A stretch of 27,788 nucleotides of DNA from Candidatus Thorarchaeota archaeon (GTDB taxonomy: Archaea > Asgardarchaeota > Thorarchaeia > Thorarchaeales > Thorarchaeaceae): the NCBI GenBank assembly GCA_046758445.1, contig JBHIAE010000036.1, forward strand, positions 1-27,788, in the 5' to 3' direction. Under the pieces are notes generated by a model that made no database searches, was not told the DNA's origin, and was given only the letters and a program-made list of their open reading frames with translations. The position numbers and the translations under genes were made by a program. Below are positions 7,192-21,535 of the stretch, piece by piece. Position 1 is the first letter of the stretch. Each line of letters starts with the position of its first letter.

Positions 7192-7329
7192 TATTCTCTC
7201 CAACCTTTGTGAAACATAGTCCCTTATCGATGAACATGGCGATTCTTAAGGGTTAGGAGCAAACGAAGCCTATCTATTGGGGAAGCTTTTTCTGCGAGTA
7301 CCTTCCAGCACAATGACTTGTGAGCCACA

Positions 7330-8376
7330 ATGGTAAAGACAGAGACATTTCGTGGTAGAGACTTCATCACGCTTCTCGACTACACAAAGGAAGAGATAGA
7401 GACCATCCTTGATGTTTCTCTGGACCTCAAGCGCAAGTTCGCCATGGGAGAGCCCCATAAGCTCCTTGACGCGAAGACGCTCTTCATGATCTTCTACAAT
7501 CAAAGCCTGAGGACCAGAAACTCGTTCGAGGCCGGTATGACGCAACTGGGAGGCCACGCTCACTTTCTGGACCCAAGCAAGATCTACGCTCCAGCATTAG
7601 AAGGAGATGAGGAGGCCTATACCACCGAGCGAGTTTCAGACGTAGCTCGTGTGTTAGCTCGAATGGGTGATGCCATTGCTATCAGATGTTACGGAGATCC
7701 GGTGGGTTGGATATACGGCAAGGCGAATGAGGTACTCAACAACTTCGCATACTGGAGTCACATTCCAATCATAAACATGGAGGATGACATCTACCATCCA
7801 TGTCAAGGCCTTGCCGATGTTATGACCGTGAAGGAGAAGTTTGGAACCTTCAAGGGAATCAAATTTGTCATGAGCTGGGCGTACTCTCCTTCAGTGCACA
7901 AACCACTTGCTGTACCCCAGAGTGCAATCATTGCTGCCACCAAGATGGGGTGCGATACCGTTCTCGCTCATCCAAGAGGGATGGAGCTGGATGATAAGAT
8001 TCTGGACCAATGCAGGGTGATGGCAGAGGAGAATGAGTCCAGTTTCGACATTGTCTACGACATGGATGAGGCATTCGAGGGTGCACATGTTGTCTATCCA
8101 AAGGCATGGACATGTAAGGAGTTCATTCCGCCTTTCAATGATAAACCTGAGCTGGAGAAGTCGCAGGCGCTCTTCGACAAGAACAAGCACTGGATCTGTG
8201 ATGATGACAAGATGAAGATTGCGGGACCAAAGTCGATGTATATGCACTGTCTGCCTTGTGATCGAGGCTTTGAGGTCACGAACTCTGTGATTGACGGTCC
8301 CCAGTCCATTGCGTTTGACCAGGCCGAGAACCGACTTCACGCGCAGAAGGCTGTCATGGCACTTACAATGCGCTGA
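7330..8376 (+). CDS. Carbamoyltransferase 1, knotted YgeW/N-acetylornithine carbamoyltransferase-like (ATCase/OTCase superfamily)
   Basis: FYNQSLRTRNSFE (SxRT carbamoyl-phosphate motif), HPCQGLAD, MSWAYSPSVHKPLAVPQS (YgeW-like loop), VYPKAW, YMHCLP, DQAENRLHAQKA. Lacks the OTCase DxxxSMG motif. Confidence 0.9.
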   Translation: MVKTETFRGRDFITLLDYTKEEIETILDVSLDLKRKFAMGEPHKLLDAKTLFMIFYNQSLRTRNSFEAGMTQLGGHAHFLDPSKIYAPALEGDEEAYTTERVSDVARVLARMGDAIAIRCYGDPVGWIYGKANEVLNNFAYWSHIPIINMEDDIYHPCQGLADVMTVKEKFGTFKGIKFVMSWAYSPSVHKPLAVPQSAIIAATKMGCDTVLAHPRGMELDDKILDQCRVMAEENESSFDIVYDMDEAFEGAHVVYPKAWTCKEFIPPFNDKPELEKSQALFDKNKHWICDDDKMKIAGPKSMYMHCLPCDRGFEVTNSVIDGPQSIAFDQAENRLHAQKAVMALTMR

Positions 8377-8482
8377 TAGCACTTTCGCCGTGAAAGACTG
8401 CTGGGTCCTGATTCCAATCCTCTATGCTTTCCCAACCACTGATATGTGTCAAGGTTCTCCACTAACTTCCGGAGGTCCAATA

Positions 8483-9082
8483 ATGGAGGATCAGCTAGAG
8501 CTGATGGTCAAGTACCTCGTACACCTTCAGTTCTATTCTGAAGAGGAGGACGTTATCTTCAGCAGGGACAAGAAGGTCCGCATCCATGTTCCTGAAGCAG
8601 GACCCGTCGTGCTTGCTTTTGAAGTGTATCTAAAGCAGTTCATCTACCTAATCCGAGAAAAACGGTATGTAGAGTATCTGGAGAAAGTGGCCGAGATACT
8701 TCCCATCAAGACTACCGAGGTCGAATGGGAGTTCCAAAAGAACATCCGAGAGATAGGGGAGGAAGATATCTCAGATATGCTTGTGGTGAATTTCCTCATC
8801 GGTCCTATCAGATCCACGATTCAGACAAGAGAGTTCGATGTACTCATGGAACGCATCAAGCGTGAAGCAAGACGTAGACTCGTGGAACCTCTGATCGACA
8901 CAACGATAGACCGGCGGTTGGCTCATCTCTATTCTTCCAACGACCCAACAGTGGCCCTTCTGTACAACCTGACACTTCTCCGTCTACTTGCTTCGGTCTT
9001 CGGCAACCCTGAATCTCGTCAAGTTGTAGACGACCTCGTCCAGTCATATTCTGAACAACTGATAGCAAAACTGATAGCGTGA
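8483..9082 (+). CDS. Hypothetical alpha-helical protein (199 aa)
   Basis: ATG at 8483 with a strong GGAGG SD at 8471-8475. The ORF-track extension to 8291 overlaps the upstream gene and is probably non-coding. Confidence 0.75.
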   Translation: MEDQLELMVKYLVHLQFYSEEEDVIFSRDKKVRIHVPEAGPVVLAFEVYLKQFIYLIREKRYVEYLEKVAEILPIKTTEVEWEFQKNIREIGEEDISDMLVVNFLIGPIRSTIQTREFDVLMERIKREARRRLVEPLIDTTIDRRLAHLYSSNDPTVALLYNLTLLRLLASVFGNPESRQVVDDLVQSYSEQLIAKLIA

Positions 9083-9153
9083 ACCCAAGGATCTCTGGAT
9101 GACTGGTCTGCCATGGTGACTCATAATACAGGGACATTCGCCAACATACGTCG

Positions 9154-10029
9154 CTACTCATATGGGAGGTCTTCAGTTGTTTCAAAGGCTCTTATAATGA
9201 AATACATCGAAACAGACATGACCGCAAGGATTCCGACAATCGATAGGAGGAACCCTCTGCCACTCAACTCGTTGAAGAAGAACAACCAGCCGTAACGTTC
9301 ACTCCATGAGGTCAAGCCAGTGAATACTCCTATCACCTCAATGACCCATCCCATGGCAACGGCAACTAGAAGCCCGAGTGTGATGTAGACTCCTCTCTTG
9401 ACCCATGTGCTCTTCTGAACAGATGTCTTGACTACCTTCTTCCTAGCGGGTGCTTCCAGTTTCGGCGCGTCTGCTGTAGCTGTTCTAATCAACCTTGCAT
9501 CTTGGATATTGCTAAGCCTCACCGTGAAGTAACTCTTGATACTCCTCCGCGTGATGTCAACCCGTCGAGTCAGAAGTTTGTCCATCACAACAAAGGTGCT
9601 TGTGAACGTAAAGAGGCCCGTCCACAAGGGTGGATAGATGGTAAGCACAAAGGGTATGTAGAAGTAGGTTGTGTTGTACACAGCCAGCCCAAGCCTGAGG
9701 GCTAGGATGAGGGAGAGCCAAAGTGTGTTTGGGCCCTGAAGATTGTTTCTGGTGTGAAGATAGTAGGATCCCGCCAACATACAAAAGAGTGAGAATCCAA
9801 CGATGTTCATGAGCGACCATACCAACCATAGATTATTCGCCAACAAGAATCGTGTGATTGGATTGAACTCGATCGCCACACCATACAGTTCAGTTGCAAG
9901 CAGAGTGTAACATACGTCGATGATCCCTATTGGGATGAGTGCGAGCACAATCACACGAATCCAGGCTTTGCTCCACCAAGTAGTGCAGAGTTCTCTGATA
10001 CTGATATCACCCATGTACTTCATGTTCAT
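9154..10029 (-). CDS. Integral membrane protein with N-terminal DUF5658-like domain
   Basis: IIDVCYT...YGVAIEFNPITR matches the D-x3-T...G-x3-E-x-N-P pattern. About 4 TM, a basic linker, then 2 TM. Confidence 0.7.
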   Translation of the reverse strand: MNMKYMGDISIRELCTTWWSKAWIRVIVLALIPIGIIDVCYTLLATELYGVAIEFNPITRFLLANNLWLVWSLMNIVGFSLFCMLAGSYYLHTRNNLQGPNTLWLSLILALRLGLAVYNTTYFYIPFVLTIYPPLWTGLFTFTSTFVVMDKLLTRRVDITRRSIKSYFTVRLSNIQDARLIRTATADAPKLEAPARKKVVKTSVQKSTWVKRGVYITLGLLVAVAMGWVIEVIGVFTGLTSWSERYGWLFFFNELSGRGFLLSIVGILAVMSVSMYFIIRAFETTEDLPYE

Positions 10030-10063
10030 TCTCCGCTTTCAGACACGAGCCTATTCAGGCGGG

Positions 10064-10070
10064 TATAAAA
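10064..10070 (-). promoter_or_regulatory. Candidate archaeal TATA box
   Basis: TTTTATA on the minus strand about 35 nt upstream of the ATG at 10029. Confidence 0.4.
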
Positions 10071-10166
10071 CCGTTGTTCTCTACGTAATACTGAATCGCA
10101 GCTTCTTTGCGCGCCAGCTAGAGGTCATACTAGCATTCTCATCACTCACGACGGCGGACAATGCTT

Positions 10167-10205
10167 CAAAAAGAAATGGGGGTGCAGAGGGTCGAAACCC
10201 CCTGC
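10167..10205 (-). terminator. Hairpin plus U-tract downstream of dppA
   Basis: Minus strand GCAGGGGGT-TTCG-ACCCTCTGC (9 bp including one G-U, UUCG loop) followed by ATTTCTTTTTG, about 30 nt after the dppA stop. Confidence 0.7.
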
Positions 10206-10236
10206 GTTTGTGCTAAGCTAGATTCTACTGGAAGTA

Positions 10237-12120
10237 CTACGTTGCGTAGTCCTTGTAGAGATGGAACCAGTACCAACCGCTCAGCATCGGATTGTATACG
10301 AGACCACTGCCCTTCATCCAAGCCTTGTAGACCGTGAACTCCTTGGGCTGGTACATGTAGATGCTTGGCTGGTCGTAGGCCACCTGTGCCTGGATCTTGC
10401 CGTAGAGGTCGAGCCTCTCAGATGGGACGATTGACTTCGAGGCGTTGACGATCCATGAATCAACAGTGGCATTCTTGTAGCCGGAAGCAATCATGAATGT
10501 ACCAGTTGAGGCCACGAATGGGAAGGCATAGTTGTGTGGGTCTGCGTAGTCTGGTGCCCAGCCAATGAGCCAGATAGGCAACTCACCATTGTCCATCTTT
10601 TCCAGGTAATTGGCCCACTCTAGAGCGTTGACTCTCACCTCTGGGACTGTAGTTATGCCAGTCAAGTTGGTGGCTGAATCTGCCATGACTGCTGCAAAGC
10701 CGTCCTTCATGAGCAGACAACCCTGCTCACGGATGACGTTGCCTGAGTTGTAGTAGAGGTCAATGAAGCCTTCCATAGCATTGATGTCCCTGGTGAAGTT
10801 CTCCAAGTTCATTGCCTGGTTCCACCAAGCAACAGCTTGCGCGATGTCGTACGTTTCCTTCCAATAGGACGAGTCTTGACCGAACATGCCTTGTGGAATG
10901 AAGCCCTTCGCCTGGAAGCCCCAACCTCTGACTATGGCACTGATTGCAGCGTCGTAGTTGAACGCGTATGCGAATGTCTTTCTGAGTTCCCTGTACGCGA
11001 ATGGACTCTCCACCTCTTTTTCAATTCCACCCCTACTGATGTTGATTGGATTGAAGTTGAAGGTGAACGCCATTAGCGTGTAGCTGAAGCCTCCGGTACG
11101 TACAGTGATGCTTGGGTCCCTTGAACCCAGTGTGACGTTGTCCCAGATCTCGTCAGCGTTTGTTGTTGGCCAGTAGACATTGTCGGCAAGACCAGTTCTG
11201 AGGTTCAGCAGTCTGCCAGTCGTGTCCTCGTTGGTCTTGATGTAGACCTCCTTGATTGAGCCTGCGTAGGTTGGAGGCTTAATTGCTGCCTCAGTCGCGG
11301 TGGCTCTCCAGTAGCCATCATAGATGACCATGTGGACGAACTCATTGGGTCTCCACTCCTCAAGTATATACGGACCAGTGCCGCTGGTGTGGGTCTCCAT
11401 CCAAGTGTGAACCTCACCGTACTCAACACCCCAGTGAGAGTCCATCGGACCCGTGTCGTTGTTAGGATTGCTGAGCACATAGGTTGGGCTCATCTGTGCA
11501 CCGACCTCGTAGGTCATTGCCGGAATGAATGGTGCAAATGGGTATTCCAGGTTGAACTGGATGGTGTATGTGTCCAGAACAACGAGTGCACCCGAGTTTG
11601 CCTGCCAGTCATCGAAGGCGGCAATGAACTCTGGTGAGGTTGTACCGTTCACAAAGGCCTCTAACTCTACGACTTCGCCTCCCTTGATTGGTTCAGCGAT
11701 CATCCACACAGGACCGTGAGTGTTGAACTGTTTCATAGCTCTCTCAAAGTTCCACTTGACAACGCTAGCATTGAAGGGCGTTCCGTCATGGAATGTTATG
11801 CCCTGGCGCAGTGAAATGTTGTACTGCTTGCCGTCTGCCGAAATGACCGGCGCAGCTGATGCCAGGAGTGGAACCGTAGGCTCAGTGTTGTCCGAACCCC
11901 ACAGGTATGTATACAACGTTTCGTAGATATTGAAATGTAGTCCCGATCCAAAGCTCTCGTAGTTGGCGTGCGGGTCCATGCTCCTAGGGTTGCCTATTGT
12001 CTCCGCGATGTATTGATCCTCAGGAGTGATCCTGGGTTGTGTTAGGAAGACAAAAGCAACACCAGCACCCGCAACCACAATCACGATAACTATGATCGCG
12101 TATATCTGGTTTCTTTCCAT
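10237..12120 (-). CDS. dppA: ABC transporter substrate-binding protein, family 5 (DppA/OppA-like)
   Basis: PRSMDPHANYE, NIYETLY, LRQGITFHDGTPFNA, SGTGPYILEEW, GWAPDYADPHN. N-terminal TM anchor. ATG at 12120 with AGGAGG SD. Confidence 0.93.
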   Translation of the reverse strand: MERNQIYAIIVIVIVVAGAGVAFVFLTQPRITPEDQYIAETIGNPRSMDPHANYESFGSGLHFNIYETLYTYLWGSDNTEPTVPLLASAAPVISADGKQYNISLRQGITFHDGTPFNASVVKWNFERAMKQFNTHGPVWMIAEPIKGGEVVELEAFVNGTTSPEFIAAFDDWQANSGALVVLDTYTIQFNLEYPFAPFIPAMTYEVGAQMSPTYVLSNPNNDTGPMDSHWGVEYGEVHTWMETHTSGTGPYILEEWRPNEFVHMVIYDGYWRATATEAAIKPPTYAGSIKEVYIKTNEDTTGRLLNLRTGLADNVYWPTTNADEIWDNVTLGSRDPSITVRTGGFSYTLMAFTFNFNPINISRGGIEKEVESPFAYRELRKTFAYAFNYDAAISAIVRGWGFQAKGFIPQGMFGQDSSYWKETYDIAQAVAWWNQAMNLENFTRDINAMEGFIDLYYNSGNVIREQGCLLMKDGFAAVMADSATNLTGITTVPEVRVNALEWANYLEKMDNGELPIWLIGWAPDYADPHNYAFPFVASTGTFMIASGYKNATVDSWIVNASKSIVPSERLDLYGKIQAQVAYDQPSIYMYQPKEFTVYKAWMKGSGLVYNPMLSGWYWFHLYKDYAT

Positions 12121-12399
12121 TGGAAATGTATTCCTCCTTCTTGCAAGAAGTGAGAAGACATCTTCTTGCCTGGGGCTCACCGAAGTGTGCCCACATTGGA
12201 GCCCTATTGGAGAGATATTGTCTAATATAGCTTGTGGGTAATGTTAGAGGTGTGAGCAGGTACACAACAAACTAGAAATACTGTCCTGTGCCGCGCAGCG
12301 GCTTCGAGTTCTCTGCAAGTTCATTGTAGTTCTTATTGCCGAGCGTCAAGTGTATGGCGGACCATCATGCGTCAGGCAAATGTGCGGCAGAATCTAAGA

Positions 12400-12446
12400 C
12401 CGTACGACGGTCGACAGGCACGTATCGCCACGAACCGTCGTACAGG
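12400..12446. promoter_or_regulatory. Inverted repeat in the dppA/dppB divergent intergenic region
   Basis: GTACGACGGT (12402-12411) / ACCGTCGTAC (12434-12443) form perfect 10-bp arms, with inner GGC/GCC pairing, followed by ATTATTTCTTT. Confidence 0.5.
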
Positions 12447-12557
12447 ATTATTTCTTTGAACCAAAGTCTTAAATGTCCCTCTATTGGATGCGCCTTTTGA
12501 TATCAGGTTGGCATAATCTACCATATCGTAAAGTCTGTGCATGTGAAGTGGTCCATA

Positions 12558-13583
12558 ATGAGACTGAGAGACTATGTATTGAGAAGGGTCCTCTTATCCA
12601 TTCCTGTCATCATAGGCGTCTTGGCCATCACCTTCGTCTTGGCCTATGTTGTTGGGAACCCTGTAGCTATGTACATTACAGAAAGAACCCATCCCGACGC
12701 CATCGCAGGAATCATAAAGGATCATGGACTTGATCAGCCGCTCTACATTCAGTTCTTCTACTATCTGAGGGACCTGTTCGCTGGCGACTGGGGATACTCG
12801 TACACGGCGAGGGCGCCCGTTATGACTACTATCCAGAGATACTTCCCTGCGACCATCGAGTTGTCAATCGTTGCCATGATAATCGCAGTGACAATTGGAA
12901 TCCCACTCGGGATCATTTCAGCAACAAAGAAGGACAGACTCACGGATCATGTTACTCGAGTTATTGCTCTAGCAGGGGTCTCTATGCCCATATTCTGGTT
13001 TGCTCTCATGCTGAAATACCTCCTTTACTTCCAGTTCTTCATGTGGGGCCTGCCTTACCTTCCAGAAGGAGGTAGATACTCGTTCACTGTCATAGATCAC
13101 ACCCCGATTACGAACTTTGTGTTGCTAGATGCAGTATTGACTGGCAACGTGGTGTTGTTCTTTGATGCTCTCATTCACCTCGTGATGCCCGCTATGTGTC
13201 TTGGATACATCTTTCTTGCTGTCATCACGAGGATGATGCGGTCCAGCATGTTAGAGGTTTTGAAGGAAGATTACATAACAATGGCACGCTCAAAGGGGCT
13301 GAGGGAGCGAGTTGTGATTTACCGGCATGCTCTGAGGAACGCGATGATACCTACTGTCACTATTATTGGTCTTGCATTTGGCGGACTCATAACTGGAGCC
13401 GTCCTTACTGAAACAATCTTCAGTTGGCCAGGTCTTGGCCGTTGGGCCGTCGCAGCCATCCTTACGTCCGATATTCCAAGCATCAATGCGTTCACGCTAC
13501 TTGTCGCAATCATATTCGTCACAGCCAATCTGATTGTTGATCTCGTGTATGCTGCCCTCGATCCGCGCATACGATATGGTTAG
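12558..13583 (+). CDS. dppB: Peptide ABC transporter permease DppB/OppB
   Basis: GLDQPLYIQFFYYL, GDWGYS, FPATIEL, EAA loop DYITMARSKGL...HALRNA, TETIFSWPGLG. ATG at 12558. Confidence 0.93.
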   Translation: MRLRDYVLRRVLLSIPVIIGVLAITFVLAYVVGNPVAMYITERTHPDAIAGIIKDHGLDQPLYIQFFYYLRDLFAGDWGYSYTARAPVMTTIQRYFPATIELSIVAMIIAVTIGIPLGIISATKKDRLTDHVTRVIALAGVSMPIFWFALMLKYLLYFQFFMWGLPYLPEGGRYSFTVIDHTPITNFVLLDAVLTGNVVLFFDALIHLVMPAMCLGYIFLAVITRMMRSSMLEVLKEDYITMARSKGLRERVVIYRHALRNAMIPTVTIIGLAFGGLITGAVLTETIFSWPGLGRWAVAAILTSDIPSINAFTLLVAIIFVTANLIVDLVYAALDPRIRYG

Positions 13584-13595
13584 AGGTGATGAGAA

Positions 13596-14888
13596 ATGGG
13601 AGAAATACGACCTCAAGCTTTGGTGGCTGAAGACGAACTTGTAGAGAAACGATTTCCAATGGTGAGAATCCTCGGTCTCTATCAGGCAATAGCTGGCCTA
13701 ATAGGTGCCGTGGCCGGGCTGATCGTCCTCGCTCCTATGATTGTAGGTTACATCGCGCTCGAAATCGGAATCGCTTTTGTTTTAGGTACATTAGTGCTTA
13801 ACACTCTGCCGCTGATTCTGCTTGGCCTATGGCTGTATTCAATTGGAAGATCGATTCTGAAATTGGATACTGGGGCATTTTCATCGGTAATGTACGGCAA
13901 CCTCATCTACATGGGGCTCCTCTTGTTAGTAGGAGGCTGGTTACCATTCATGATCCCTATCTATGTGGTAGCGATTCTCATACTGATGATCCCAAGCGCA
14001 AGGGCTTACTGGTGGCAGCTTTTCAGGGAGGACTTGGGTCCGAGGATGAAGGAGCTTAGGTACAGTCTGTATCTCATCCGAAGAAGTCCCCTTGTGATCG
14101 CTGGTCTGATTATCATCGCTGGCTACATCATCATCGCTCTTACGGTGCAATTCTGGGCCCCCTACGGCCCTACCGAGAGAATCTGGACTGAAACCTTGCA
14201 GCCACCTAGTCCCGATCATATTTGGGGGACTAATCAAAGTGGCGGTGACATATTCAGTATGGTCATGTGGGCGACTCAAATAGACTTGAGAATCGCTGTC
14301 ACGGTCGTTTCAGTTGCGCTGATAATCGGCACACTGATTGGAGCCGCAGCAGGCTACTTTGGCGGCGCTGTTGATGAGATAGTCATGCGAATCACGGATG
14401 TGTTCTTTGCATTCCCAGGTCTCATCCTTGCCATGGCGATAGTGGCTGCTCTCGGTGAGAGAAACCTTGACAACATTGCAATCGCTATGATGGTTGTATG
14501 GTGGCCCACTTATGCCCGTCTGGTGAGAGGCCAGGTGTTGATTGAGCGTGAGAGGCTGTACGTGGAAGCTGCACGTTCTGTAGGTGCATCGGACTTCAGG
14601 ATTCTGATAAGTCACATTCTCCCAAACACAGTACAGCCGGTCATCGTGCAGTCCACGCTTGACCTTGGCGGTGTCCTGCTGACAGCAGCCGGCCTCAGCT
14701 TCATCGGCTTCGGTGCAGAAGCGGGTACAGCGGAATGGGGCCTCATGATTGCCATCGGGCAGGACCACTTTACATTGTACTGGTTGATCTTCTATCCAGG
14801 GATGGCGATCCTGCTCTGTGCACTTGCCTTCAACCTGGTGGGCGACGGAGTTAGAGACATCTTGGATCCAAAACTTAGAAGACGATGA
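13596..14888 (+). CDS. dppC: Peptide ABC transporter permease DppC/OppC with extra N-terminal membrane domain
   Basis: PPSPDHIWGT, DEIVMRITDVFFAFP, YVEAARSVGAS...HILPN, AAGLSFIGFG, AFNLVGDGVRDILDP. GAGGTG SD. Confidence 0.92.
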   Translation: MGEIRPQALVAEDELVEKRFPMVRILGLYQAIAGLIGAVAGLIVLAPMIVGYIALEIGIAFVLGTLVLNTLPLILLGLWLYSIGRSILKLDTGAFSSVMYGNLIYMGLLLLVGGWLPFMIPIYVVAILILMIPSARAYWWQLFREDLGPRMKELRYSLYLIRRSPLVIAGLIIIAGYIIIALTVQFWAPYGPTERIWTETLQPPSPDHIWGTNQSGGDIFSMVMWATQIDLRIAVTVVSVALIIGTLIGAAAGYFGGAVDEIVMRITDVFFAFPGLILAMAIVAALGERNLDNIAIAMMVVWWPTYARLVRGQVLIERERLYVEAARSVGASDFRILISHILPNTVQPVIVQSTLDLGGVLLTAAGLSFIGFGAEAGTAEWGLMIAIGQDHFTLYWLIFYPGMAILLCALAFNLVGDGVRDILDPKLRRR

Positions 14889-14907
14889 TAACAAGAGATG
14901 AAAGACA

Positions 14908-16125
14908 GTGGTACCATCAAACAATATAACTCAGGAAAGCACCGATGAAATGCTCACACTAGAAGAGGGTGTGATCCTTGACGTCAAGGGGGTCAAGACC
15001 TCATTCTATACCTATGAGGGCGTTGTGAAGGCTCTAGATGGCATAACAGTTCAACTTAGGAAGGGTGACACCCTGGCATTTGTCGGGGAAACAGGCTGTG
15101 GGAAATCCGTGACTGCGAAGTCAATCTTGCGTCTCGTGGACGCCCCAGGACGGATAGAGGAGGGCGAGATAGTCTTCCGAGACCGTGCACTGGACGGCAG
15201 CGAGATTGTAATGGATCTTCTGAAGTTGTCAGAGGATGAGATGCGTCAGATTAGAGGCAATCGAATATCAATAGTATTCCAAGACCCCGCAACGTATCCC
15301 AACCCCGTCTTCCGAATTGGCGATCAGATTGCTGAGGTAATTTCTCTACATCAGGATCTTGCTTTGGACGCTCTGAAAATGAAGATTGAGCGCCTTGAGG
15401 CCACCCTGGCAGAGAATCCGGACGCCCCAAATCTCGCTGAGATACAGGACAAGATTTCCGTGTACAGAAGTCAGCTCGAAGATCCACCTGCGCCAACTGA
15501 GGACGACAAGAAGCAGGTGTCCAAGAAGAAGGCTGTACATATGCTCGAGATGGTGCGGATGCCCTCACCCGAAGAGGTCGCCAATCAGTATCCCCATGAG
15601 CTATCCGGAGGTATGAGACAGAGAGCACTCATCGCGATGTCTCTGTCATGCAACCCTCAGATCCTGATATGTGACGAGGCCACAACAGCACTCGATGTCA
15701 CTGTTCAGGCTCAGGTCCTCAAGCTATTGAACGAGCTCAAGTCAGAGTTTGATTCTTCAATCATCATCATCACTCACGACCTGGGAGTTGTTGCGGAGAC
15801 CTGCACGCAAGTTGCTGTGATGTACGCCGGGGTTGTTGTTGAGTACGCGTCAACTGAAGAACTGTTCTCGGATCCGATACACCCCTACACGACAGGTTTG
15901 CTCCGGGCGATTCCGAAGCTTACTGAGAAGTCTGATCGGCTTCTGCAGATCAGGGGGACTGTACCGAACTTGATCACTCCACCAACTGGATGTAGATTCC
16001 ATCCGCGATGTGAGTTCATGACTAAGATCTGCAAGGAACAGAGGCCTCCAAGAGAAGAGATGAAGCCCGGCCACTGGGTGGAGTGCTTCCATCCACAGGG
16101 CTCCATGAAGGGAAAGAAGAGGTGA
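14908..16125 (+). CDS. dppD: Peptide ABC transporter ATPase DppD/OppD
   Basis: Walker A GETGCGKS, LSGGMRQR signature, ILICDE, ITHD, C-terminal GCRFHPRC...C...C cluster motif. Start may be ATG at 14950. Confidence 0.93.
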   Translation: MVPSNNITQESTDEMLTLEEGVILDVKGVKTSFYTYEGVVKALDGITVQLRKGDTLAFVGETGCGKSVTAKSILRLVDAPGRIEEGEIVFRDRALDGSEIVMDLLKLSEDEMRQIRGNRISIVFQDPATYPNPVFRIGDQIAEVISLHQDLALDALKMKIERLEATLAENPDAPNLAEIQDKISVYRSQLEDPPAPTEDDKKQVSKKKAVHMLEMVRMPSPEEVANQYPHELSGGMRQRALIAMSLSCNPQILICDEATTALDVTVQAQVLKLLNELKSEFDSSIIIITHDLGVVAETCTQVAVMYAGVVVEYASTEELFSDPIHPYTTGLLRAIPKLTEKSDRLLQIRGTVPNLITPPTGCRFHPRCEFMTKICKEQRPPREEMKPGHWVECFHPQGSMKGKKR

Positions 16126-16131
16126 TCAAGG

Positions 16132-17163
16132 ATGCCAGACGGAGAACCTTTGGTGCAAGTAAAGAACTTGAAAAAGTACTTCCCATTGACTGGCGGAGTG
16201 TTCCGCAAGGTACTAGGGTATGTTAGAGCAGTTGACGACATCACGTTCGACATCTACAAGGGAGAAACCCTTGGGCTTGTCGGAGAAAGTGGATGTGGGA
16301 AGACCACAACAGGGAGAACGATACTTAGACTAATCCCTCAAACTGCAGGCGAAATATCCTTCGATGGTGTAGACATCGCTGAGCTGAACCAGAGGGAAAT
16401 GCAGCAGTTTCGTCGCAACATGGGAATCGTGTTCCAAGACCCGATGGCTTCGCTTGATCCCAGACTGACAATCAAGAATGCGGTGGGCGAGCCGCTCTTG
16501 GTGAATGGGGTCGCACGTGGCTACAGGCTTCGACAGAAGGTATTGGAGCTGCTTCAGAAGGTCGGTCTTACTGAGGATCACCTCAACAGGTTCCCGCACG
16601 AGTTTAGCGGAGGTCAGAGGCAGAGAATCTGTATCGCCCGTGCACTGGCTCTGAACCCGAAGTTTGTCGTGATGGACGAGCCCACATCAAGCACTGATGT
16701 ATCAGTTCAGGCGCAGACTCTGAACCTGATGAAGGACCTACAGTCGGAGTTTGACCTAACGTATCTGTTCATCTCACACAACTTGAGTGTTGTCAAGCAC
16801 ATGAGCGACAGAGTCGCCGTCATGTACCTTGGGAAGATACTAGAGATGACGCCTCGGGACATATTCGATGAGGCCCTACATCCCTACTCGGCTGCATTGG
16901 TATCGGCTGTTCCTATTCCAAACCCGGAACATGCTGGCCGCGCTGTGATCTTGGCCGGGGAGGTACCGAGTCCAATCAACCCGCCAACTGGTTGCGTATT
17001 CCATCCTCGATGCAGGTTCATGCAAGACATCTGCAGAGAGGAGATTCCAGAGCTTCGTGACATGGGCGATGGACACCTCGTTGCATGTCACTTCGCAGGA
17101 GAGTTGGACCTAGACTACAAGGAAGCGGTGGAGGCCCAAGAGGCCGCTATCGCCAGTGGATAG
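16132..17163 (+). CDS. dppF: Peptide ABC transporter ATPase DppF/OppF
   Basis: GESGCGKT, FSGGQRQR, VVMDEP, ISHN, GCVFHPRC...C...C. GAGGTG SD overlaps the dppD stop. Confidence 0.93.
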   Translation: MPDGEPLVQVKNLKKYFPLTGGVFRKVLGYVRAVDDITFDIYKGETLGLVGESGCGKTTTGRTILRLIPQTAGEISFDGVDIAELNQREMQQFRRNMGIVFQDPMASLDPRLTIKNAVGEPLLVNGVARGYRLRQKVLELLQKVGLTEDHLNRFPHEFSGGQRQRICIARALALNPKFVVMDEPTSSTDVSVQAQTLNLMKDLQSEFDLTYLFISHNLSVVKHMSDRVAVMYLGKILEMTPRDIFDEALHPYSAALVSAVPIPNPEHAGRAVILAGEVPSPINPPTGCVFHPRCRFMQDICREEIPELRDMGDGHLVACHFAGELDLDYKEAVEAQEAAIASG

Positions 17164-17230
17164 TCCATTGCCAAATGTAATATGTTCGCGGACCGAACTA
17201 CTGCAACGACGAGAAACGGAGGTACAGTGA

Positions 17231-17434
17231 ATGGATGATGAAGAATCACTAGAGCCACGGGAAGAAGCTGACTGGTCGCAATATGGAGATCATGAGGTCA
17301 GCAAGCATCCTCCTCTTGACGGGACGGACTATGTTGCGCTCTTCATCGCATCTCTTCAATCCATCTTCCTTCCCCTTGTCTTGCTGGCAATTGTGCTGGC
17401 CGCGATAGGATTCATGTTCATGTTGTTGCCATAG
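17231..17434 (+). CDS. Small membrane protein (67 aa), acidic N-terminus plus hydrophobic C-terminal hairpin
   Basis: GGAGG SD just upstream; clear amphipathic architecture. Confidence 0.6.
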   Translation: MDDEESLEPREEADWSQYGDHEVSKHPPLDGTDYVALFIASLQSIFLPLVLLAIVLAAIGFMFMLLP

Positions 17435-17449
17435 GCGGAGTGAAGGCAC

Positions 17450-17788
17450 GTGTGGAAGCCTGCAGTACAGCGTGGCCTCCTCATAGCAACTCTGCTAATG
17501 TCACTGATAGTAGTAGTAAGCCTGACGGCATCAGTGATAGCCCAGGTATCTCTCTTCGGCTACCTAGTTGGTGTATTTAGCTTCCTAGGGACCGGACTAC
17601 TACTCATTCTTGGAGGCTGCCTATATGCTCGCCAGCCTCTTGAAGATGAGAAGAGACATAAAGCGGACGGCAGCCCTGCTCCGTCTTGGCGGAGAGCACA
17701 GCTTGGCCTTAGACTAATGATTGCCAGTCTCTTCCTCTTTCTTTACGGCTTGCTCTTCACTTTCATCGGTATCACCTTGGGTGTCTAG
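17450..17788 (+). CDS. Small 3-TM membrane protein, unknown function
   Basis: Three hydrophobic helices, GTG start with GGAG SD. Its 3' end overlaps the convergent gene by 75 nt. Confidence 0.6.
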   Translation: MWKPAVQRGLLIATLLMSLIVVVSLTASVIAQVSLFGYLVGVFSFLGTGLLLILGGCLYARQPLEDEKRHKADGSPAPSWRRAQLGLRLMIASLFLFLYGLLFTFIGITLGV

Positions 17789-18556
17789 CGAGAAGATGTC
17801 ATCGCCTCTCTTGATGAGCTTGTATGCCGCTCCTGGCGCAATCATCATCAGAACAGCGACAGCTACTACCATTGAAACAAACACCACATAGGCCACACCT
17901 GGATTCGCGGCGGCCAACGGGATGAACACATGGGTGAAGAGGAAACCAATGAGTGAAGACACTCCATAGATGCCTGCTTCCACCATTGCATCACCCATGG
18001 GTGCCAATATGAAGGAAATGACCCCGGCGGCCAAAAGGATCTTGACCCACCTGCTAAGAGCATTCGTCGAAACAAGCGTGTAAGCGAAATCGCCCTCTCT
18101 GTACCGAAGCAGATCCTGTTGAGTCAACCATGTGAGCAGTCCATAAGACAAGGATACATCAAGAGGAGCCTGCACAAAAAGGAATGCTGCAAGTGCCACA
18201 AAGAATGCTCCACCTACTGCCGCAAACCCCCCAAATATCAGAAACACAGCAATCATGGGTAGAATTCCCAAGAAAGAACCTAGGGCAAGTGAGCCTTCAA
18301 GGGTTTTGTCTGTCAATAGTTCTTGGATGGCTGCCTTTGTCCTTGAATGGCGTCCCCGAATGACGTTCTTCATGACCCAGCCATAGGACAGACAGTTTGA
18401 ATAGTGTCTTCTTCCTGACAAATCGATGACACTAGGATCGAATCTAGCTTTCATGTATAGCAAGAGCTCTGCGAACTGTGCCGAGCGTCTGCGCCAAGTA
18501 ACCGCTAGGGCAAACGTGACAATCCCAAGCAGTGCTAATGCCAAGGTCATAAACAT
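17714..18556 (-). CDS. Unknown ~6-TM membrane protein, paralog B
   Basis: Shares ordered motifs with 18758..19537 (FDPSVIDLSG..YSNCLSYGWVMKNVIRG; PLDVSLSYGLL..LTQQD..GDFAY; APMGD; VFIPLA). Confidence 0.8.
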   Translation of the reverse strand: MFMTLALALLGIVTFALAVTWRRRSAQFAELLLYMKARFDPSVIDLSGRRHYSNCLSYGWVMKNVIRGRHSRTKAAIQELLTDKTLEGSLALGSFLGILPMIAVFLIFGGFAAVGGAFFVALAAFLFVQAPLDVSLSYGLLTWLTQQDLLRYREGDFAYTLVSTNALSRWVKILLAAGVISFILAPMGDAMVEAGIYGVSSLIGFLFTHVFIPLAAANPGVAYVVFVSMVVAVAVLMMIAPGAAYKLIKRGDDIFSLDTQGDTDESEEQAVKKEEETGNH

Positions 18557-18757
18557 GATCTATTCCCTACACGCCGTTTCTGATATGTGTGCACTAATGC
18601 CGATACTGTGGTCCACCAGAATCATCAAGATTTCTCGTCAAACTAATCCCGTTCGGTTTGCTTCTTGAATCTACCCTTCAACGCGTGATTCCGGTGTAGA
18701 TTCTGGGCTAAGTAGCTTGGTGACAGACTTCAGTTCATTCAACGGTAGCTGTAGGAA

Positions 18758-19537
18758 TCATGCCTCGACGATGAAACCATCTCTCCTGATCTTGGCTCGC
18801 CTGCGAAGAGATCTAACTACAGCATAAGCGATGATTGGGACAAGAGGCACTCCAAAGATGAACAGAAGCAGTGCAAGGGCAAATGAGAAGTCAGCCAATG
18901 GAATAAATACTCCCACCAGGAACAAGTTGAAGAAGCCTGCAATAGCCATTGCCATGGCATCAGGAATGAGCTCACCCCATGGAGCGACAATGATTGATGC
19001 TACACCAATGATTATCAGATTCCTTATCCAGACCTTGATTTGATTGGAGGATATCCTAGCATAGGCAAGGTCTCCCTTCATGAGTTCGGTTTGGTCCTGT
19101 TCGGTGAGGTACTTCAAAAGGTTATAGGACGCTCCTACATCTTCTGGGCTTCGCACAATGAAAACTGCCGCAAAAACGGCCACAAGTGCCGCACCCACAA
19201 GCACGAAGCTTTGGAAGAGAAGGTAGACAGCAAGTACTGGAAGCGAGCCCAGCACCAGACCGACTATCATCGTTCCGGCAAACGTGTTCTGTCCGACAAA
19301 GTCACCCAGTGTCGTTTCAGAATTCGTATAGTCACCATGAATCATGTTCTTCATGACCCATCTATGGGACAAGCACCTCGTATACTTCTGCTGACCGCTG
19401 ATGTCAACCTCATCTGGATTGAACCTAGTGGTGAAGAATGAGAAGAGGCTCTCAAACCCATCGAGTTTTCTTCGCCAATATAGTGCTGTAGCAAATGAGA
19501 GAACTCCCAAGAGAATCAAAGCGATGATCATATACAT
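18758..19537 (-). CDS. Unknown ~6-TM membrane protein, paralog A
   Basis: FNPDEVDISG..YTRCLSHRWVMKNMIHG; PEDVGASYNLL..LTEQD..GDLAY; APWGE; VFIPLA. ATG 1 nt after the upstream stop. Confidence 0.8.
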   Translation of the reverse strand: MYMIIALILLGVLSFATALYWRRKLDGFESLFSFFTTRFNPDEVDISGQQKYTRCLSHRWVMKNMIHGDYTNSETTLGDFVGQNTFAGTMIVGLVLGSLPVLAVYLLFQSFVLVGAALVAVFAAVFIVRSPEDVGASYNLLKYLTEQDQTELMKGDLAYARISSNQIKVWIRNLIIIGVASIIVAPWGELIPDAMAMAIAGFFNLFLVGVFIPLADFSFALALLLFIFGVPLVPIIAYAVVRSLRRRAKIRRDGFIVEA

Positions 19538-19538
19538 T

Positions 19539-20381
19539 CTAGCCCTCAGCCTCCATCAACCTATGAAATGCCCAGAACCACACGTCTGCCAATAGAGTCA
19601 ACAACGATTTCTCCTCGGAACCCTCATGTTTTCCCACTAAGAGATGCACGACACCCCTCAGCTTGGAAGGTTTTCCATCTTCTATCGTAAGTGAAACATC
19701 ATCTCCGGGGATCTCTAGCTGAATTCCGTGATCATGAAAGACTCGCGCCGACTCTGAGTAATCATAGTCGAATTCATCGGTTGGCTCTGGATGTATCCGT
19801 ACCTTTGCCTTGCCAAGTCTTGCCATGATTCCAATCTGTTTGAAGACGTAGTTGGGTATTTGTTTGTTGTTCATCTCTGGCATGCCAAACTTTCTCATTG
19901 TCAACATGCTCCGCTCAATGAACCCGCTGAAGTCGCCGCCATCGCCCTCTATGCTAAGGGTAAGAGGCTTGCCCTTGAACGCGATACGATTCGAACCAAG
20001 GTCCCACCTCTTGACTGCCTTCGGATTAGACGCATACTCTTCGTTATGGTCCCAGAAGCAGTATGGCATGGTTGTCATTGCCAACATCTTATCCTTGTCC
20101 CAAGGCTTTCGCTCCATGAGCGCCCATGTAGCATCGTTAATCACATAGAGAGACATGCAGACCGGTGCGACGAGTTTTGCATTGGTCTCAAGAAAAGGTC
20201 CCAGTCCTTCTTGCATGGATACCTGCTCTGTCAACTTATCAAGTTGAGATGCCGACAGGACGACAGGTTTGCCCTCATCAAATTGACTCTCCTGTTCTGC
20301 GGAGAAGTGAAATTGGACATTAAATCTCTCCGCAAACTCCTGAAAAGTGCCTCGGGGCTGACCAACCTTCATCTCAAACAA
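19539..20381 (-). CDS. Hypothetical soluble protein (280 aa)
   Basis: Long ORF with protein-like composition, TTG start preceded by GAAGG, translationally coupled to the 19537 gene. Confidence 0.75.
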   Translation of the reverse strand: MFEMKVGQPRGTFQEFAERFNVQFHFSAEQESQFDEGKPVVLSASQLDKLTEQVSMQEGLGPFLETNAKLVAPVCMSLYVINDATWALMERKPWDKDKMLAMTTMPYCFWDHNEEYASNPKAVKRWDLGSNRIAFKGKPLTLSIEGDGGDFSGFIERSMLTMRKFGMPEMNNKQIPNYVFKQIGIMARLGKAKVRIHPEPTDEFDYDYSESARVFHDHGIQLEIPGDDVSLTIEDGKPSKLRGVVHLLVGKHEGSEEKSLLTLLADVWFWAFHRLMEAEG

Positions 20382-20503
20382 GCTTTCTGCCTTCGAGTTT
20401 CTTACAAAACGCTTTCGCTGCTGGCATAATCTCTAGCGACTGATGTCTGACCTCTCCCGACAGACCTAAAACCCAGTTGATAGGATGCATCTGTGTGATT
20501 ACA

Positions 20504-21535
20504 ATGATAGATCTGTATGGCCGTGACCTGCTTTGTACGCAAGACTGGAGTGTCGAAGAGATTGAGAAGACCCTCGAACTTGCATTTGAGATGAAGGACC
20601 GAAGGTACGACCATCCTCTGAGCAATTGCCTAGACAGACGGACCTTCTTTATGTTCTTCTATAACCCTTCTGTTCGCACCAGACAGTCTTTCGAGGCTGC
20701 GGCATCAGAGCTCGGAGGTCATGCCCAATTTCTTGAGCCGAAGTCGATGAGACTCAAGACCTCGAAATCAGCTGGTGAAACAGTTCAAGACGCCGCTGAA
20801 GTCATGAGCAGATACGGCATTGGCATAGGAATCAGAGTGCTAGAAACCGCACTGGAGTACTACGGCCAAGGACATGAACTTCTTCAGGAATATGCCCGGC
20901 ACGCCAGCATTCCCATTGTGAGTATGGCACATGATCGGTTCCACCCGTGTCAGGGTCTTGCCGATGTGATGGGGTATCGGATGCATGGTGGTAAGGATCT
21001 TAAGGGTAAGAAGTTTCTTCAGGTCTGGGGTAAGGGAGCACTTGTCCGGTCTTGGTGTTCAGTTCAGGAGAGCATTCTCATAAATACCAGACTCGGCATG
21101 GACGTAACACTGGCACATCCTAAGGGGTACGACTTGGACCCTGAGGTCATCAAATGGTGTGAGGAGAACGCGAACAAAGCTGACAGCCGTTTTGAGATTG
21201 TACACGATTTGGAAGATGGTTACAAGAACGCGGACTTTGTGTACTCTCGTAACTGGATGACAGCATCCTTCTATGATGACATGGTCAAAGGAAGTGTTGA
21301 CGCCGCAAAGAAGAAGGAGATAGAGATTGCATCCAAATATGACGAGTGGATCACCACCAAGGATTGGATGGCAAAGACCAACGAGGCATTCTTTACACAC
21401 TGTGGTCCTGTTGACAGAAACGCTGAGGTGACAGACGAAGTTTGTGACGGACCAAAGTCGATCGTCTATGATGTGGCTGAAAACAGGCTCCATGTCCAAA
21501 AAGCAATAATGGCGCTTACAATGGGAAAGAGATGA
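20504..21535 (+). CDS. Carbamoyltransferase 2, divergent ATCase/OTCase-superfamily member
   Basis: FYNPSVRTRQSFE, GGHAQFL, HPCQGLADVM, VYSRNW, FTHCGP (canonical HCLP), DVAENRLHVQKA. ATG at 20504. Confidence 0.9.
   Translation: MIDLYGRDLLCTQDWSVEEIEKTLELAFEMKDRRYDHPLSNCLDRRTFFMFFYNPSVRTRQSFEAAASELGGHAQFLEPKSMRLKTSKSAGETVQDAAEVMSRYGIGIGIRVLETALEYYGQGHELLQEYARHASIPIVSMAHDRFHPCQGLADVMGYRMHGGKDLKGKKFLQVWGKGALVRSWCSVQESILINTRLGMDVTLAHPKGYDLDPEVIKWCEENANKADSRFEIVHDLEDGYKNADFVYSRNWMTASFYDDMVKGSVDAAKKKEIEIASKYDEWITTKDWMAKTNEAFFTHCGPVDRNAEVTDEVCDGPKSIVYDVAENRLHVQKAIMALTMGKR

Follow-up and report, generated by a model that had tools for sequence, protein, structure and literature searches.

The window analysed here, a stretch of 27,788 nucleotides from a Thorarchaeota genome, encodes two carbamoyltransferases, CT1 and CT2. 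Judged by sequence comparison, these are separately conserved, old lineages of the knotted AOTCase/SOTCase/YgeW group that lie outside the characterised clades. With moderate confidence, we propose that the pair is catabolic, that it phosphorolyses both ureido groups of 2,3-diureidopropionate-type compounds and that it feeds carbamate kinase, with a substrate that is possibly scavenged in this archaeon. The features of the window are the following.

4612..7203, minus strand: penicillin-amidase-family Ntn hydrolase with an N-terminal hydrophobic anchor, divergent from CT1; best solved relative D-succinylase
7330..8376, plus strand: CT1, knotted-type carbamoyltransferase, 348 aa; SLRT, HPCQ and HCLP; YgeW-like Pro-rich loop WAYSPSVHKPLAVPQ; VYPKAW
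8483..9082, plus strand: protein of no known family after CT1, about 200 aa; start inferred as the first ATG past CT1 that fits the homologue length
9154..10029, minus strand: multi-pass membrane protein, family not known; adjoins the binding protein and CT2 in Thorarchaeota, including CT2-only genomes
10237..12180, minus strand: membrane-anchored family-5 solute-binding protein (DppA-like) of the neighbouring ABC importer
12537..17163, plus strand: Opp/Dpp-type ABC importer, kept beside CT2 in Thorarchaeota
12537-13583 and 13596-14888, plus strand: importer permeases 1 and 2
14908-16125 and 16132-17163, plus strand: importer ATPases 1 and 2
20504..21535, plus strand: CT2, second-lineage carbamoyltransferase, 343 aa (ORF open from 20477); SVRT, HPCQ and HCGP in place of HxLP; loop WGKGALVRSWCSVQ; VYSRNW

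The initial annotation had described two non-canonical carbamoyltransferases that share several strings and differ in their acceptor loops, and this description was borne out in intact ORFs. The CT1 ORF (7330-8376, plus strand) is uninterrupted and encodes 348 aa. The CT2 ORF (20477-21535, plus strand) is also uninterrupted and encodes 352 aa; the database form (P0123) begins at the ATG at 20504 and has 343 aa. The quoted strings were found in both translations: FYNQSLRTRNSFE, LGGHAHFL, HPCQGLADVM and AENRLHAQKAVMALTM in CT1, and FYNPSVRTRQSFE, LGGHAQFL, HPCQGLADVM and AENRLHVQKAIMALTM in CT2. The acceptor loop is SWAYSPSVHKPLAVPQS in CT1 and VWGKGALVRSWCSVQES in CT2. Both proteins contain OTCace_N (PF02729) and OTCace (PF00185), with E values of 1e-33 to 1e-39, and they share 39% identity along their whole length (BLASTP, E 6e-80). 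These motifs are not due to chance since they are invariant across 120 CT1 and 115 CT2 homologues, and each acceptor pocket is invariant within its own family, as the claim of different pockets would have it. The absence of the DxxxSMG (OTCase) and RxQxER (ATCase) motifs from both translations was confirmed as well, the matching stretch being occupied by VYPKAW in CT1 and VYSRNW in CT2. No arg or pyr genes were found among the window's ORFs; the same genome has a canonical OTCase (SMG, HCLP) on contig C3 and a canonical ATCase (RIQKER, HPLP) on contig C2.

The superfamily binds carbamoyl phosphate through SxRT, HPxQ, HxLP and conserved Arg residues, and the knotted transcarbamylases (AOTCase/SOTCase/YTCase) are marked by a proline-rich loop and an extended 120s loop (PMC4581275). 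CT1 has SxRT, HPxQ, HxLP and the conserved Arg residues, which is the full motif set, together with the Pro-rich loop SPSVHKPLAVP and an extended 120s loop (CYGDPVGWIYGKANE). In CT2, SVRT, HPCQ and both Arg residues are invariant across the 115 homologues, the 120s loop is long, and the equivalent of the Pro-rich loop, GKGALVRSWCSV, contains no proline. The CT2 family always lacks the Leu of HxLP and has HCGP (n=53, including the window's CT2) or HPMP (n=62). With this one exception, all carbamoyl-phosphate-binding residues are kept in both families.

Trees were built with FastTree on all 127 rows and with IQ-TREE on 45 rows, with no SOTCase reference among the rows. In both, a clade that contains CT1, CT2, the Xanthomonas AOTCase and E. 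coli YgeW had 99% support, and the AOTCase/SOTCase clade, with 100% support, excluded CT1 and CT2. The expectation that neither protein would fall in a characterised clade therefore held. Their status as sisters is less clear, as CT1 groups weakly with YgeW in the free tree and a CT1+CT2 clade is not rejected by the AU test (p = 0.69). The pair had also been called a duplication. It is not a local one, but consists of two old lineages that are normally adjacent and are split here. Because CT1 and CT2 are adjacent in other Thorarchaeota, we read the 12-kb gap between them, from gene order, as a rearrangement.

YgeW, the E. coli YTCase that works with YqeA in the 2,8-dioxopurine (reductive urate) pathway, is in the same knotted group. 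Its proposed second-substrate residues are Q160, D124, S200, K203, K270, L331, D334 and E344 (PMC4581275). S200, K203, K270, L331, D334 and E344 are invariant in the 120 CT1 homologues, Q160 is replaced by E, and D124 has no aligned CT1 residue. CT2 keeps only D334 and E344. CT1 also resembles YgeW in its Pro-rich loop (WAYSPSxxKPLxVPQ), in VYPKxW and in HCLP. However, identity between CT1 and YgeW is only about 30%, and CT1 is shorter (348 versus 396 aa), without the extra terminal helices and the long insert in the 240s. CT1 carries SLRT where YgeW has STRT, its 80s loop is long, and it has a second transferase as its partner. On the YgeW/YTCase profile (TIGR03316, cut-off 500 bits), CT1 scored 147.6 bits and CT2 126.4 bits. 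On the AOTCase profile (NF003384, cut-off 288 bits), CT1 was marginally above the cut-off at 291.4 bits and CT2 was below it at 247.7 bits. The best sequence and fold matches are AOTCase (Xanthomonas ArgF', PDB 3kzc) and SOTCase. The CT2 structure model matched 3kzk with a TM score of 0.89-0.91, and its best fold matches were 3kz* (AOTCase) and 2yfk.

The gene neighbourhoods of the bacterial orthologues point to purine degradation. Of 35 bacterial loci, 32 have CT2 at most 8 kb downstream of CT1 and 20 have the two genes directly adjacent; carbamate kinase follows in 22/30. One Asgard family also has carbamate kinase near the pair. Of 24 CT1-bearing genomes, 23 also have a CT2 orthologue, and all 24 genomes of the pair survey have a single carbamate kinase. 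The kinase beside the bacterial orthologues is YqeA-like (about 50% identical). The suggestion in the initial annotation of a catabolic role that feeds ATP formation fits this CT1-CT2-carbamate kinase operon. This operon is embedded in 2,8-dioxopurine (reductive urate) clusters that also encode Xdh subunits, a UacX-like reductase, SsnA and a xanthine permease, a link to anaerobic purine degradation that goes beyond that annotation. Locus L067 has the order XdhABC, UacX-like, SsnA, CT1, CT2, carbamate kinase and ThrC-like. Locus L068 has PreT-like, UacX-like, SsnA, CysK-like, CT1, CT2 and carbamate kinase, followed by ThrC-like, the Xdh 2Fe-2S subunit, a xanthine/uracil permease, MocA-like and the Xdh FAD subunit. 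PreT-like and PydA-like reductase genes occur in L067 and L068, and an XdhB-like gene and adenine deaminase are further members of loci from Eisenbacteria and other bacterial MAGs. SsnA exceeds its curated cut-off in 15 of 16 bacterial genomes, and a Mo-hydroxylase domain is present in 15/16. None of the 24 genomes has a YgeW match above the 500-bit cut-off or a YgeX, and of the 16 bacterial genomes only four (G010, G013, G020 and G022) carry YgeY, alongside CT2. Since the bacterial genomes with these clusters are without YgeW and YgeX and usually without YgeY, the likely substrates of CT1 and CT2 are those of the diureidopropionate pathway.

Beside the observed linkage, co-occurrence, pocket residues and clade placement, we infer the direction of the reaction, the substrates and the order of the steps. 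CT1 and CT2 would be two autonomous transferases, predicted to be catalytically competent, that work in the catabolic direction. Each would convert a ureido (N-carbamoyl) amino-acid-type compound and phosphate to the free amine and carbamoyl phosphate, from which carbamate kinase would then make ATP. The logic that we propose is that of catabolic OTCase and PTCase with carbamate kinase in the arginine and agmatine deiminase pathways, although those enzymes are unknotted, have SMG or 230s loops, act on other substrates and serve one to a pathway rather than two. The YgeW-like pocket makes (R)-2,3-diureidopropionate the likely substrate of CT1. CT2 would act on the leftover mono-ureido-diaminopropionate in place of the hydrolytic YgeY step, and each purine would yield two carbamoyl phosphates rather than one. 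The YgeW reaction and its ATP coupling with YqeA have been published (bioRxiv 10.1101/2025.04.24.650524, 10.1101/2025.05.19.654654). The two studies differ over the ureido group that YgeW takes off, so any division of labour between CT1 and CT2 is tentative. More tentatively, the pair could represent a variant of the 2,8-dioxopurine pathway in which CT1 stands in for YgeW and CT2, a new transcarbamylase family (HCGP/HPMP), for YgeY. Both cleavages would then be phosphorolytic, substrate-level ATP would be doubled, and the module would have passed between bacteria and Asgard archaea and been rewired in the latter to an importer for scavenged ureido acids.

In Thorarchaeota, the surroundings of the pair are different. 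The amidase gene is kept upstream of CT1 in 27 Asgard loci, mostly from Thorarchaeota, and the closest solved relative of its product is D-succinylase, an N-succinyl-D-amino-acid hydrolase. The protein at 8483..9082 trails CT1 in a Thorarchaeota subclade in which CT2 is non-adjacent, filling the usual place of CT2. In Thorarchaeota, the genes beside CT2 are always those of the membrane protein, the Opp permeases and the DppA-like binding protein, and this holds for CT2-only genomes too. The importer and the exported amidase beside the pair suggest that the ureido substrate, or its precursor, is scavenged from outside, and the thorarchaeal pair would be coupled to both. The single carbamate kinase of this genome is outside the window on contig C21, followed by RidA, and the kinase gene lies away from CT1 and CT2 in Thorarchaeota. 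Among 151 Asgard genomes, carbamate kinase was found in 112, comprising 39 of 44 with CT1 and 73 of 107 without it. This co-occurrence, proposed earlier as a check, is uninformative since the kinase is widespread in Asgard genomes with or without CT1.

This archaeon has no established upstream purine enzymes. A Mo hydroxylase is absent from this genome and from seven other Thorarchaeota, and a tblastn search with the E. coli protein gave no match to YgfK in this genome. An SsnA-like gene is present in 7 of 8 Thorarchaeota at about 340-366 bits, below the family cut-off of 455. It was dropped as a pathway marker, as it occurs in relatives without CT1 and its closest solved relative is an MTA/SAH deaminase. 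A hydantoinase and a DHO_dh-type reductase on contig C4 were likewise dropped as purine enzymes; their genes belong, along with those of a CN_hydrolase and an aminotransferase, to an ordinary cluster for reductive pyrimidine breakdown. As possible feeders of its carbamate kinase, this genome has no match to agmatine deiminase and no convincing arginine deiminase, with only weak ADI-family matches. The ureidoglycine carbamoyltransferase Rxyl_2847 was also dropped as a relative, as it belongs to the ATCase branch and is unrelated to CT1 and CT2.

Another possible explanation is that the purine link is bacterial only and that the Thorarchaeota pair acts on imported ureido or N-carbamoyl (D-)amino acids or on small peptides. 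The constant CT2 neighbourhood, the pairing of CT1 with an exported D-succinylase-like amidase, the absence of Xdh from Thorarchaeota and the failure of the SsnA-like gene to co-vary with CT1 all fit this explanation. We nevertheless consider it unlikely: CT1 is 70-75% identical between Thorarchaeota and bacteria with every pocket residue invariant, which argues for one substrate in both domains. It would also overlap with our preferred reading if the imported compound were a purine-derived ureido acid. It is improbable that the pair is instead a beta-alanine transcarbamylase, which would phosphorolyse the pyrimidine-derived N-carbamoyl-beta-alanine and N-carbamoyl-beta-aminoisobutyrate. It has been speculated that such an enzyme exists (PMC4581275), the reductase genes in L067 and L068 would suit it, and this genome has the Pyd pathway. 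However, the Pyd cluster already includes a CN_hydrolase (beta-ureidopropionase family), the bacterial clusters bear the purine markers SsnA, Xdh subunits, xanthine permease and adenine deaminase, and the CT1 pocket matches that of YgeW.

The loss of the HxLP Leu from CT2 raises the question of whether CT2 is a non-catalytic or specificity-modifying subunit in mixed trimers with CT1. Active sites in this family are formed jointly by neighbouring subunits (PMC4581275), and the two genes are tightly adjacent and co-occur. Against this, the carbamoyl-phosphate-binding residues and a distinct acceptor pocket are invariant in the 115 CT2 sequences, which makes such a role very improbable. The heterotrimer raised in the initial annotation is disfavoured in its obligate form because CT2 occurs without CT1 in four near-complete Thorarchaeota genomes and CT1 without CT2 in one complete chromosome. 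Finally, the public annotation would make CT1 a true N-acetyl-/N-succinyl-ornithine carbamoyltransferase of arginine biosynthesis and CT2 its variant. CT1 does score marginally above the NF003384 cut-off, and its best solved relative by sequence is the Xanthomonas AOTCase. Both proteins share the S-(M/L/V)-R-T motif and the extended 120s loop with AOTCase and SOTCase, and CT1, but not CT2, carries E at AOTCase position 144 and K at 252. None of the AOTCase specificity residues W77, E92, N185 and K302 (PMC4581275) is kept in either protein, however. Position 77 has no aligned Trp; position 92 varies, with V/K/R/I among the CT1 homologues and A/S in CT2; at 185, CT1 has K and CT2 has S; and both have E at 302. 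Together with the tree placement, the canonical OTCase elsewhere in the genome and a catabolic gene context (carbamate kinase and purine genes in related loci) in place of an arginine one, this leaves an arginine-biosynthetic role very improbable.

The proposed catabolic role for CT1 and CT2 names concrete candidate substrates and would indicate two unassigned transcarbamylase specificities. Public databases label both proteins as ornithine or N-acetylornithine carbamoyltransferase, and Asgard metabolic reconstructions that read them as arginine biosynthesis would need correction. What YgeW does was established as recently as 2025, and current descriptions of the pathway give it one phosphorolytic and one hydrolytic ureido cleavage. 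Our literature searches found the tandem CT1-CT2 pair in no paper. The paired arrangement suggests a version of the pathway that conserves more energy. It is found in Thorarchaeota and in several bacterial phyla without cultured members; it was seen in Chloroflexota, Eisenbacteria, Caldisericota, Gemmatimonadota, Humimicrobiia and Thorarchaeota. In a sample of 201 Chloroflexota genomes, all five with CT1 fall among the 40 with an SsnA match.

CT1 and CT2, the two carbamoyltransferases in the window, are most fittingly described as conserved, paired knotted transcarbamylases of unassigned specificity that, at least in bacteria, belong to a variant anaerobic purine pathway. Both genes are intact, and their positions and surroundings are as follows:

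3-2915, plus strand: 970-aa ORF without any Pfam match, open at the window's 5' edge
4612-7203: penicillin-amidase-family hydrolase
7330-8376, plus strand: CT1, carbamoyltransferase, 348 aa
10237-12180: DppA-like family-5 binding protein
17714-20381, minus strand: tandem pair of paralogous multi-pass membrane proteins plus a soluble protein of 280 aa, divergent from CT2; none matches Pfam, and none was found in the related loci examined
20477-21535, plus strand: CT2, carbamoyltransferase; the database form starts from the ATG at 20504 and has 343 aa

Full-length identity between the two proteins is 39%, and both contain the OTCace_N and OTCace domains. Every motif string quoted in the initial annotation was found in their translations, and both lack the OTCase DxxxSMG and ATCase RxQxER motifs, as it had claimed. 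Pfam scans of the window's other ORFs likewise turned up no arg or pyr gene. The archaeon's own genome (3.25 Mb, 113 contigs, 93% complete) encodes a canonical OTCase on contig C3 and an ATCase on contig C2. A degenerate carbamoyltransferase homologue that has lost all carbamoyl-phosphate motifs lies on contig C1 (1283-2347, minus strand).

The best NCBIfam model for both proteins was N-acetylornithine carbamoyltransferase, on which CT1 scored 291.4 bits, barely above the cut-off of 288, and CT2 scored 247.7, under it. The closest solved sequences were Xanthomonas AOTCase and Pyrococcus OTCase. The AlphaFold model of CT2 (pLDDT 95.6) matched AOTCase best (TM 0.89-0.91), followed by an Enterococcus YgeW-type structure. 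Database searches show that CT1 and CT2 belong to two distinct families, both strongly conserved. Identity for CT1 is 82-95% inside Thorarchaeota and still 70-75% against proteins from Anaerolineae, Eisenbacteria, Caldisericota, Gemmatimonadota and others; the values for CT2 are 75-87% inside Thorarchaeota and 53-68% against bacterial proteins.

The phylogeny that had been proposed as a check was calculated with FastTree (127 rows) and IQ-TREE LG+C20 (45 rows). References were E. coli YgeW, ArgI and PyrB, Xanthomonas AOTCase, and the OTCase and ATCase of the archaeon itself, along with 108 representatives from an exhaustive profile search. CT1 and CT2 fell inside the knotted clade (99% support), each in a clade of its own (98% and 99% support), and both were left out of the AOTCase/SOTCase clade (100% support). 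The public label of ornithine or N-acetylornithine carbamoyltransferase is very probably wrong. The idea that the two are sister paralogues was neither supported nor rejected, since CT1 grouped weakly with YgeW (84% support) and a CT1+CT2 clade was not rejected by the AU test (p = 0.69). Any duplication is older than the dispersal of the pair among bacterial phyla.

Residues were compared across 120 CT1 and 115 CT2 homologues, with roles taken from Shi et al. (PMC4581275). The carbamoyl-phosphate-binding residues are invariant in both families (Ser, Arg and Thr of SxRT, the strand-4 Arg, His and Gln of HPxQ, and the C-terminal Arg). W77, E92, N185 and K302, the specificity residues of AOTCase, are not kept in CT1. 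By contrast, the proposed second-substrate residues of YgeW (S200, K203, K270, L331, D334 and E344) are invariant in all 120 CT1 homologues. They are located within two segments, the Pro-rich loop WAYSPSxxKPLxVPQ and the stretch VYPKxW, both almost identical in E. coli YgeW, and the sole difference among the pocket residues compared is Q160 of YgeW, which is Glu in CT1. The CT2 pocket is equally invariant but differs from that of YgeW and CT1: YgeW positions 160, 200, 203 and 270 are Ala, Leu, Ser and Arg, followed by Trp and Cys. The Leu of HxLP never occurs in CT2, where the motif reads HCGP in 53 and HPMP in 62 of the 115 homologues.

We examined 80 loci with CT1 orthologues. A CT2 orthologue lies within 8 kb downstream of CT1 in 32 of 35 bacterial loci, and in 20 of the 35 the two are immediate same-strand neighbors with a gap of 300 bp or less. 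A carbamate kinase then follows in 22/30 bacterial loci and a threonine-synthase-like PLP enzyme in 10/30. The operon kinase shares about 50% identity with E. coli YqeA and exceeds the curated cut-offs for both NF009007 and TIGR00746. CT1 and CT2 are spaced by 100-140 bp in several Thorarchaeota (loci L023, L026, L027, L033, L037 and L038), and by this comparison their 12-kb separation in the window is a rearrangement.

The bacterial neighbors belong to the anaerobic 2,8-dioxopurine/reductive urate pathway, itself described only recently, as in these three loci:

L068 (Gemmatimonadota): PreT-like, DHO_dh+Fer4 (UacX-like), SsnA, CysK-like, CT1, CT2, carbamate kinase, ThrC-like, Xdh 2Fe-2S subunit, xanthine/uracil permease, MocA-like, Xdh FAD subunit
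L067: XdhA, XdhB, XdhC, UacX-like, SsnA, CT1, CT2, kinase, ThrC-like
L073: XdhC-like gene and xanthine permease at the end of the locus

Eisenbacteria and several bacterial MAG loci have an XdhB-like gene upstream and an adenine deaminase downstream, with an MFS transporter next in several. Among the 16 bacterial CT1 genomes searched whole, SsnA above its curated cut-off was found in 15 (and in one of 14 control genomes, E. coli), a Mo-hydroxylase domain in 15, and a single carbamate kinase match in all 16. True YgeW and YgeX were found in none and YgeY in four. CT1 occurs in five of 201 evenly sampled Chloroflexota genomes, and these five all belong to the 40 that match SsnA at E 1e-120 or better. 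Because related genomes are not independent, the co-occurrence figures lend support but do not amount to statistical proof.

In the pathway of E. coli and Clostridium sporogenes, (R)-2,3-diureidopropionate loses one ureido group to phosphorolysis by YgeW, and YqeA turns the resulting carbamoyl phosphate into ATP; the second ureido group is then removed hydrolytically by YgeY, and diaminopropionate is deaminated by YgeX (bioRxiv 10.1101/2025.04.24.650524; 10.1101/2025.05.19.654654). The two papers disagree on which ureido group goes first. On the simplest reading of the CT1-CT2-kinase operon, CT1 would perform the YgeW step and CT2 a second phosphorolysis in place of YgeY. The earlier suggestion of a catabolic pair with two substrates was broadly right; the substrates and reaction order given here are inferred. 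Diaminopropionate ammonia-lyase is absent from the bacterial CT1/CT2 clusters, and their ThrC-like PLP enzymes, joined in some clusters by a CysK-like one, are candidates for the missing last step (L068:4987-6033, L046:14902-15942, L073:3112-4350). Literature searches found no paper on the CT1-CT2 pair.

The initial annotation also raised a CT1-CT2 heterotrimer. CT2 orthologues were present in 23 of 24 CT1-bearing genomes searched whole. Four near-complete genomes from the archaeon's own family carry CT2 with the Opp-type importer but lack CT1, and one complete chromosome has CT1 without CT2; these argue against an obligate heterotrimer and favor autonomous enzymes. In three Thorarchaeota-family genomes that are 97-98% complete and without CT1 (G293, G276 and G288; loci L174, L175 and L176), CT2 is beside the membrane protein that adjoins it in other Thorarchaeota, and L174 and L175 also carry the binding protein and Opp importer. 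No amidase homologue was found in the stretches examined at these loci.

In Caldisericota and Chloroflexia genomes (G011:C45:1000-7000 and G016:C8:39000-51000), a third carbamoyltransferase paralogue, about 340 aa long, has a second SsnA-like gene and an Xdh-type Mo subunit as neighbors, which suggests more purine-like catabolic clusters with their own transferase.

Among Asgard genomes CT1 is patchy (44/151, including 26/32 in the archaeon's own family), and in one other family it adjoins a carbamate kinase, as in bacteria. Transfer between bacteria and archaea would fit the very high identity of CT1 across the two domains. The neighbors conserved in Thorarchaeota differ from the bacterial ones: they are the anchored penicillin-amidase-family hydrolase divergent from CT1 (best solved relative D-succinylase, E 1e-62) and, beside CT2, a membrane protein, the DppA-like binding protein and an Opp-type importer. 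Neither Mo hydroxylase, YgeX, nor YgeY above its cut-off was found in the eight Thorarchaeota genomes searched, and tblastn did not find YgfK in the archaeon's own genome. Its SsnA-like gene on contig C23 scored 356 bits against a cut-off of 455, has an MTA/SAH deaminase as nearest solved relative, and is also found in relatives without CT1. On contig C21 (16712-18136) the genome's one carbamate kinase is directly followed by RidA (enamine/imine deaminase); genes for an enoyl-CoA hydratase and a class-V aminotransferase come before it. The arginine deiminase family gave only weak, partial matches in this genome and agmatine deiminase none, so no other obvious catabolic donor of carbamoyl phosphate is visible there.

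The region of contig C1 around the degenerate homologue (1-25000) also holds a second SsnA-like amidohydrolase, a DHO_dh-like gene, a second hydantoinase-like gene, and two genes for tungsten-type aldehyde:ferredoxin oxidoreductases, both accompanied by a partner of 163 aa; this could be a further nucleobase-type catabolic cluster in a genome without Mo hydroxylases. The hydantoinase and DHO_dh-type reductase on contig C4 were considered as upstream purine enzymes and rejected, since both belong to a standard cluster for reductive pyrimidine breakdown that also encodes a CN_hydrolase and a class-III aminotransferase. That pathway looks complete (C4:90500-100600: PydA-like DHO_dh+Fer4, class-III aminotransferase, CN_hydrolase, dihydropyrimidinase), and a TnpB/Cas12f-like gene is inserted between its CN_hydrolase and dihydropyrimidinase genes.
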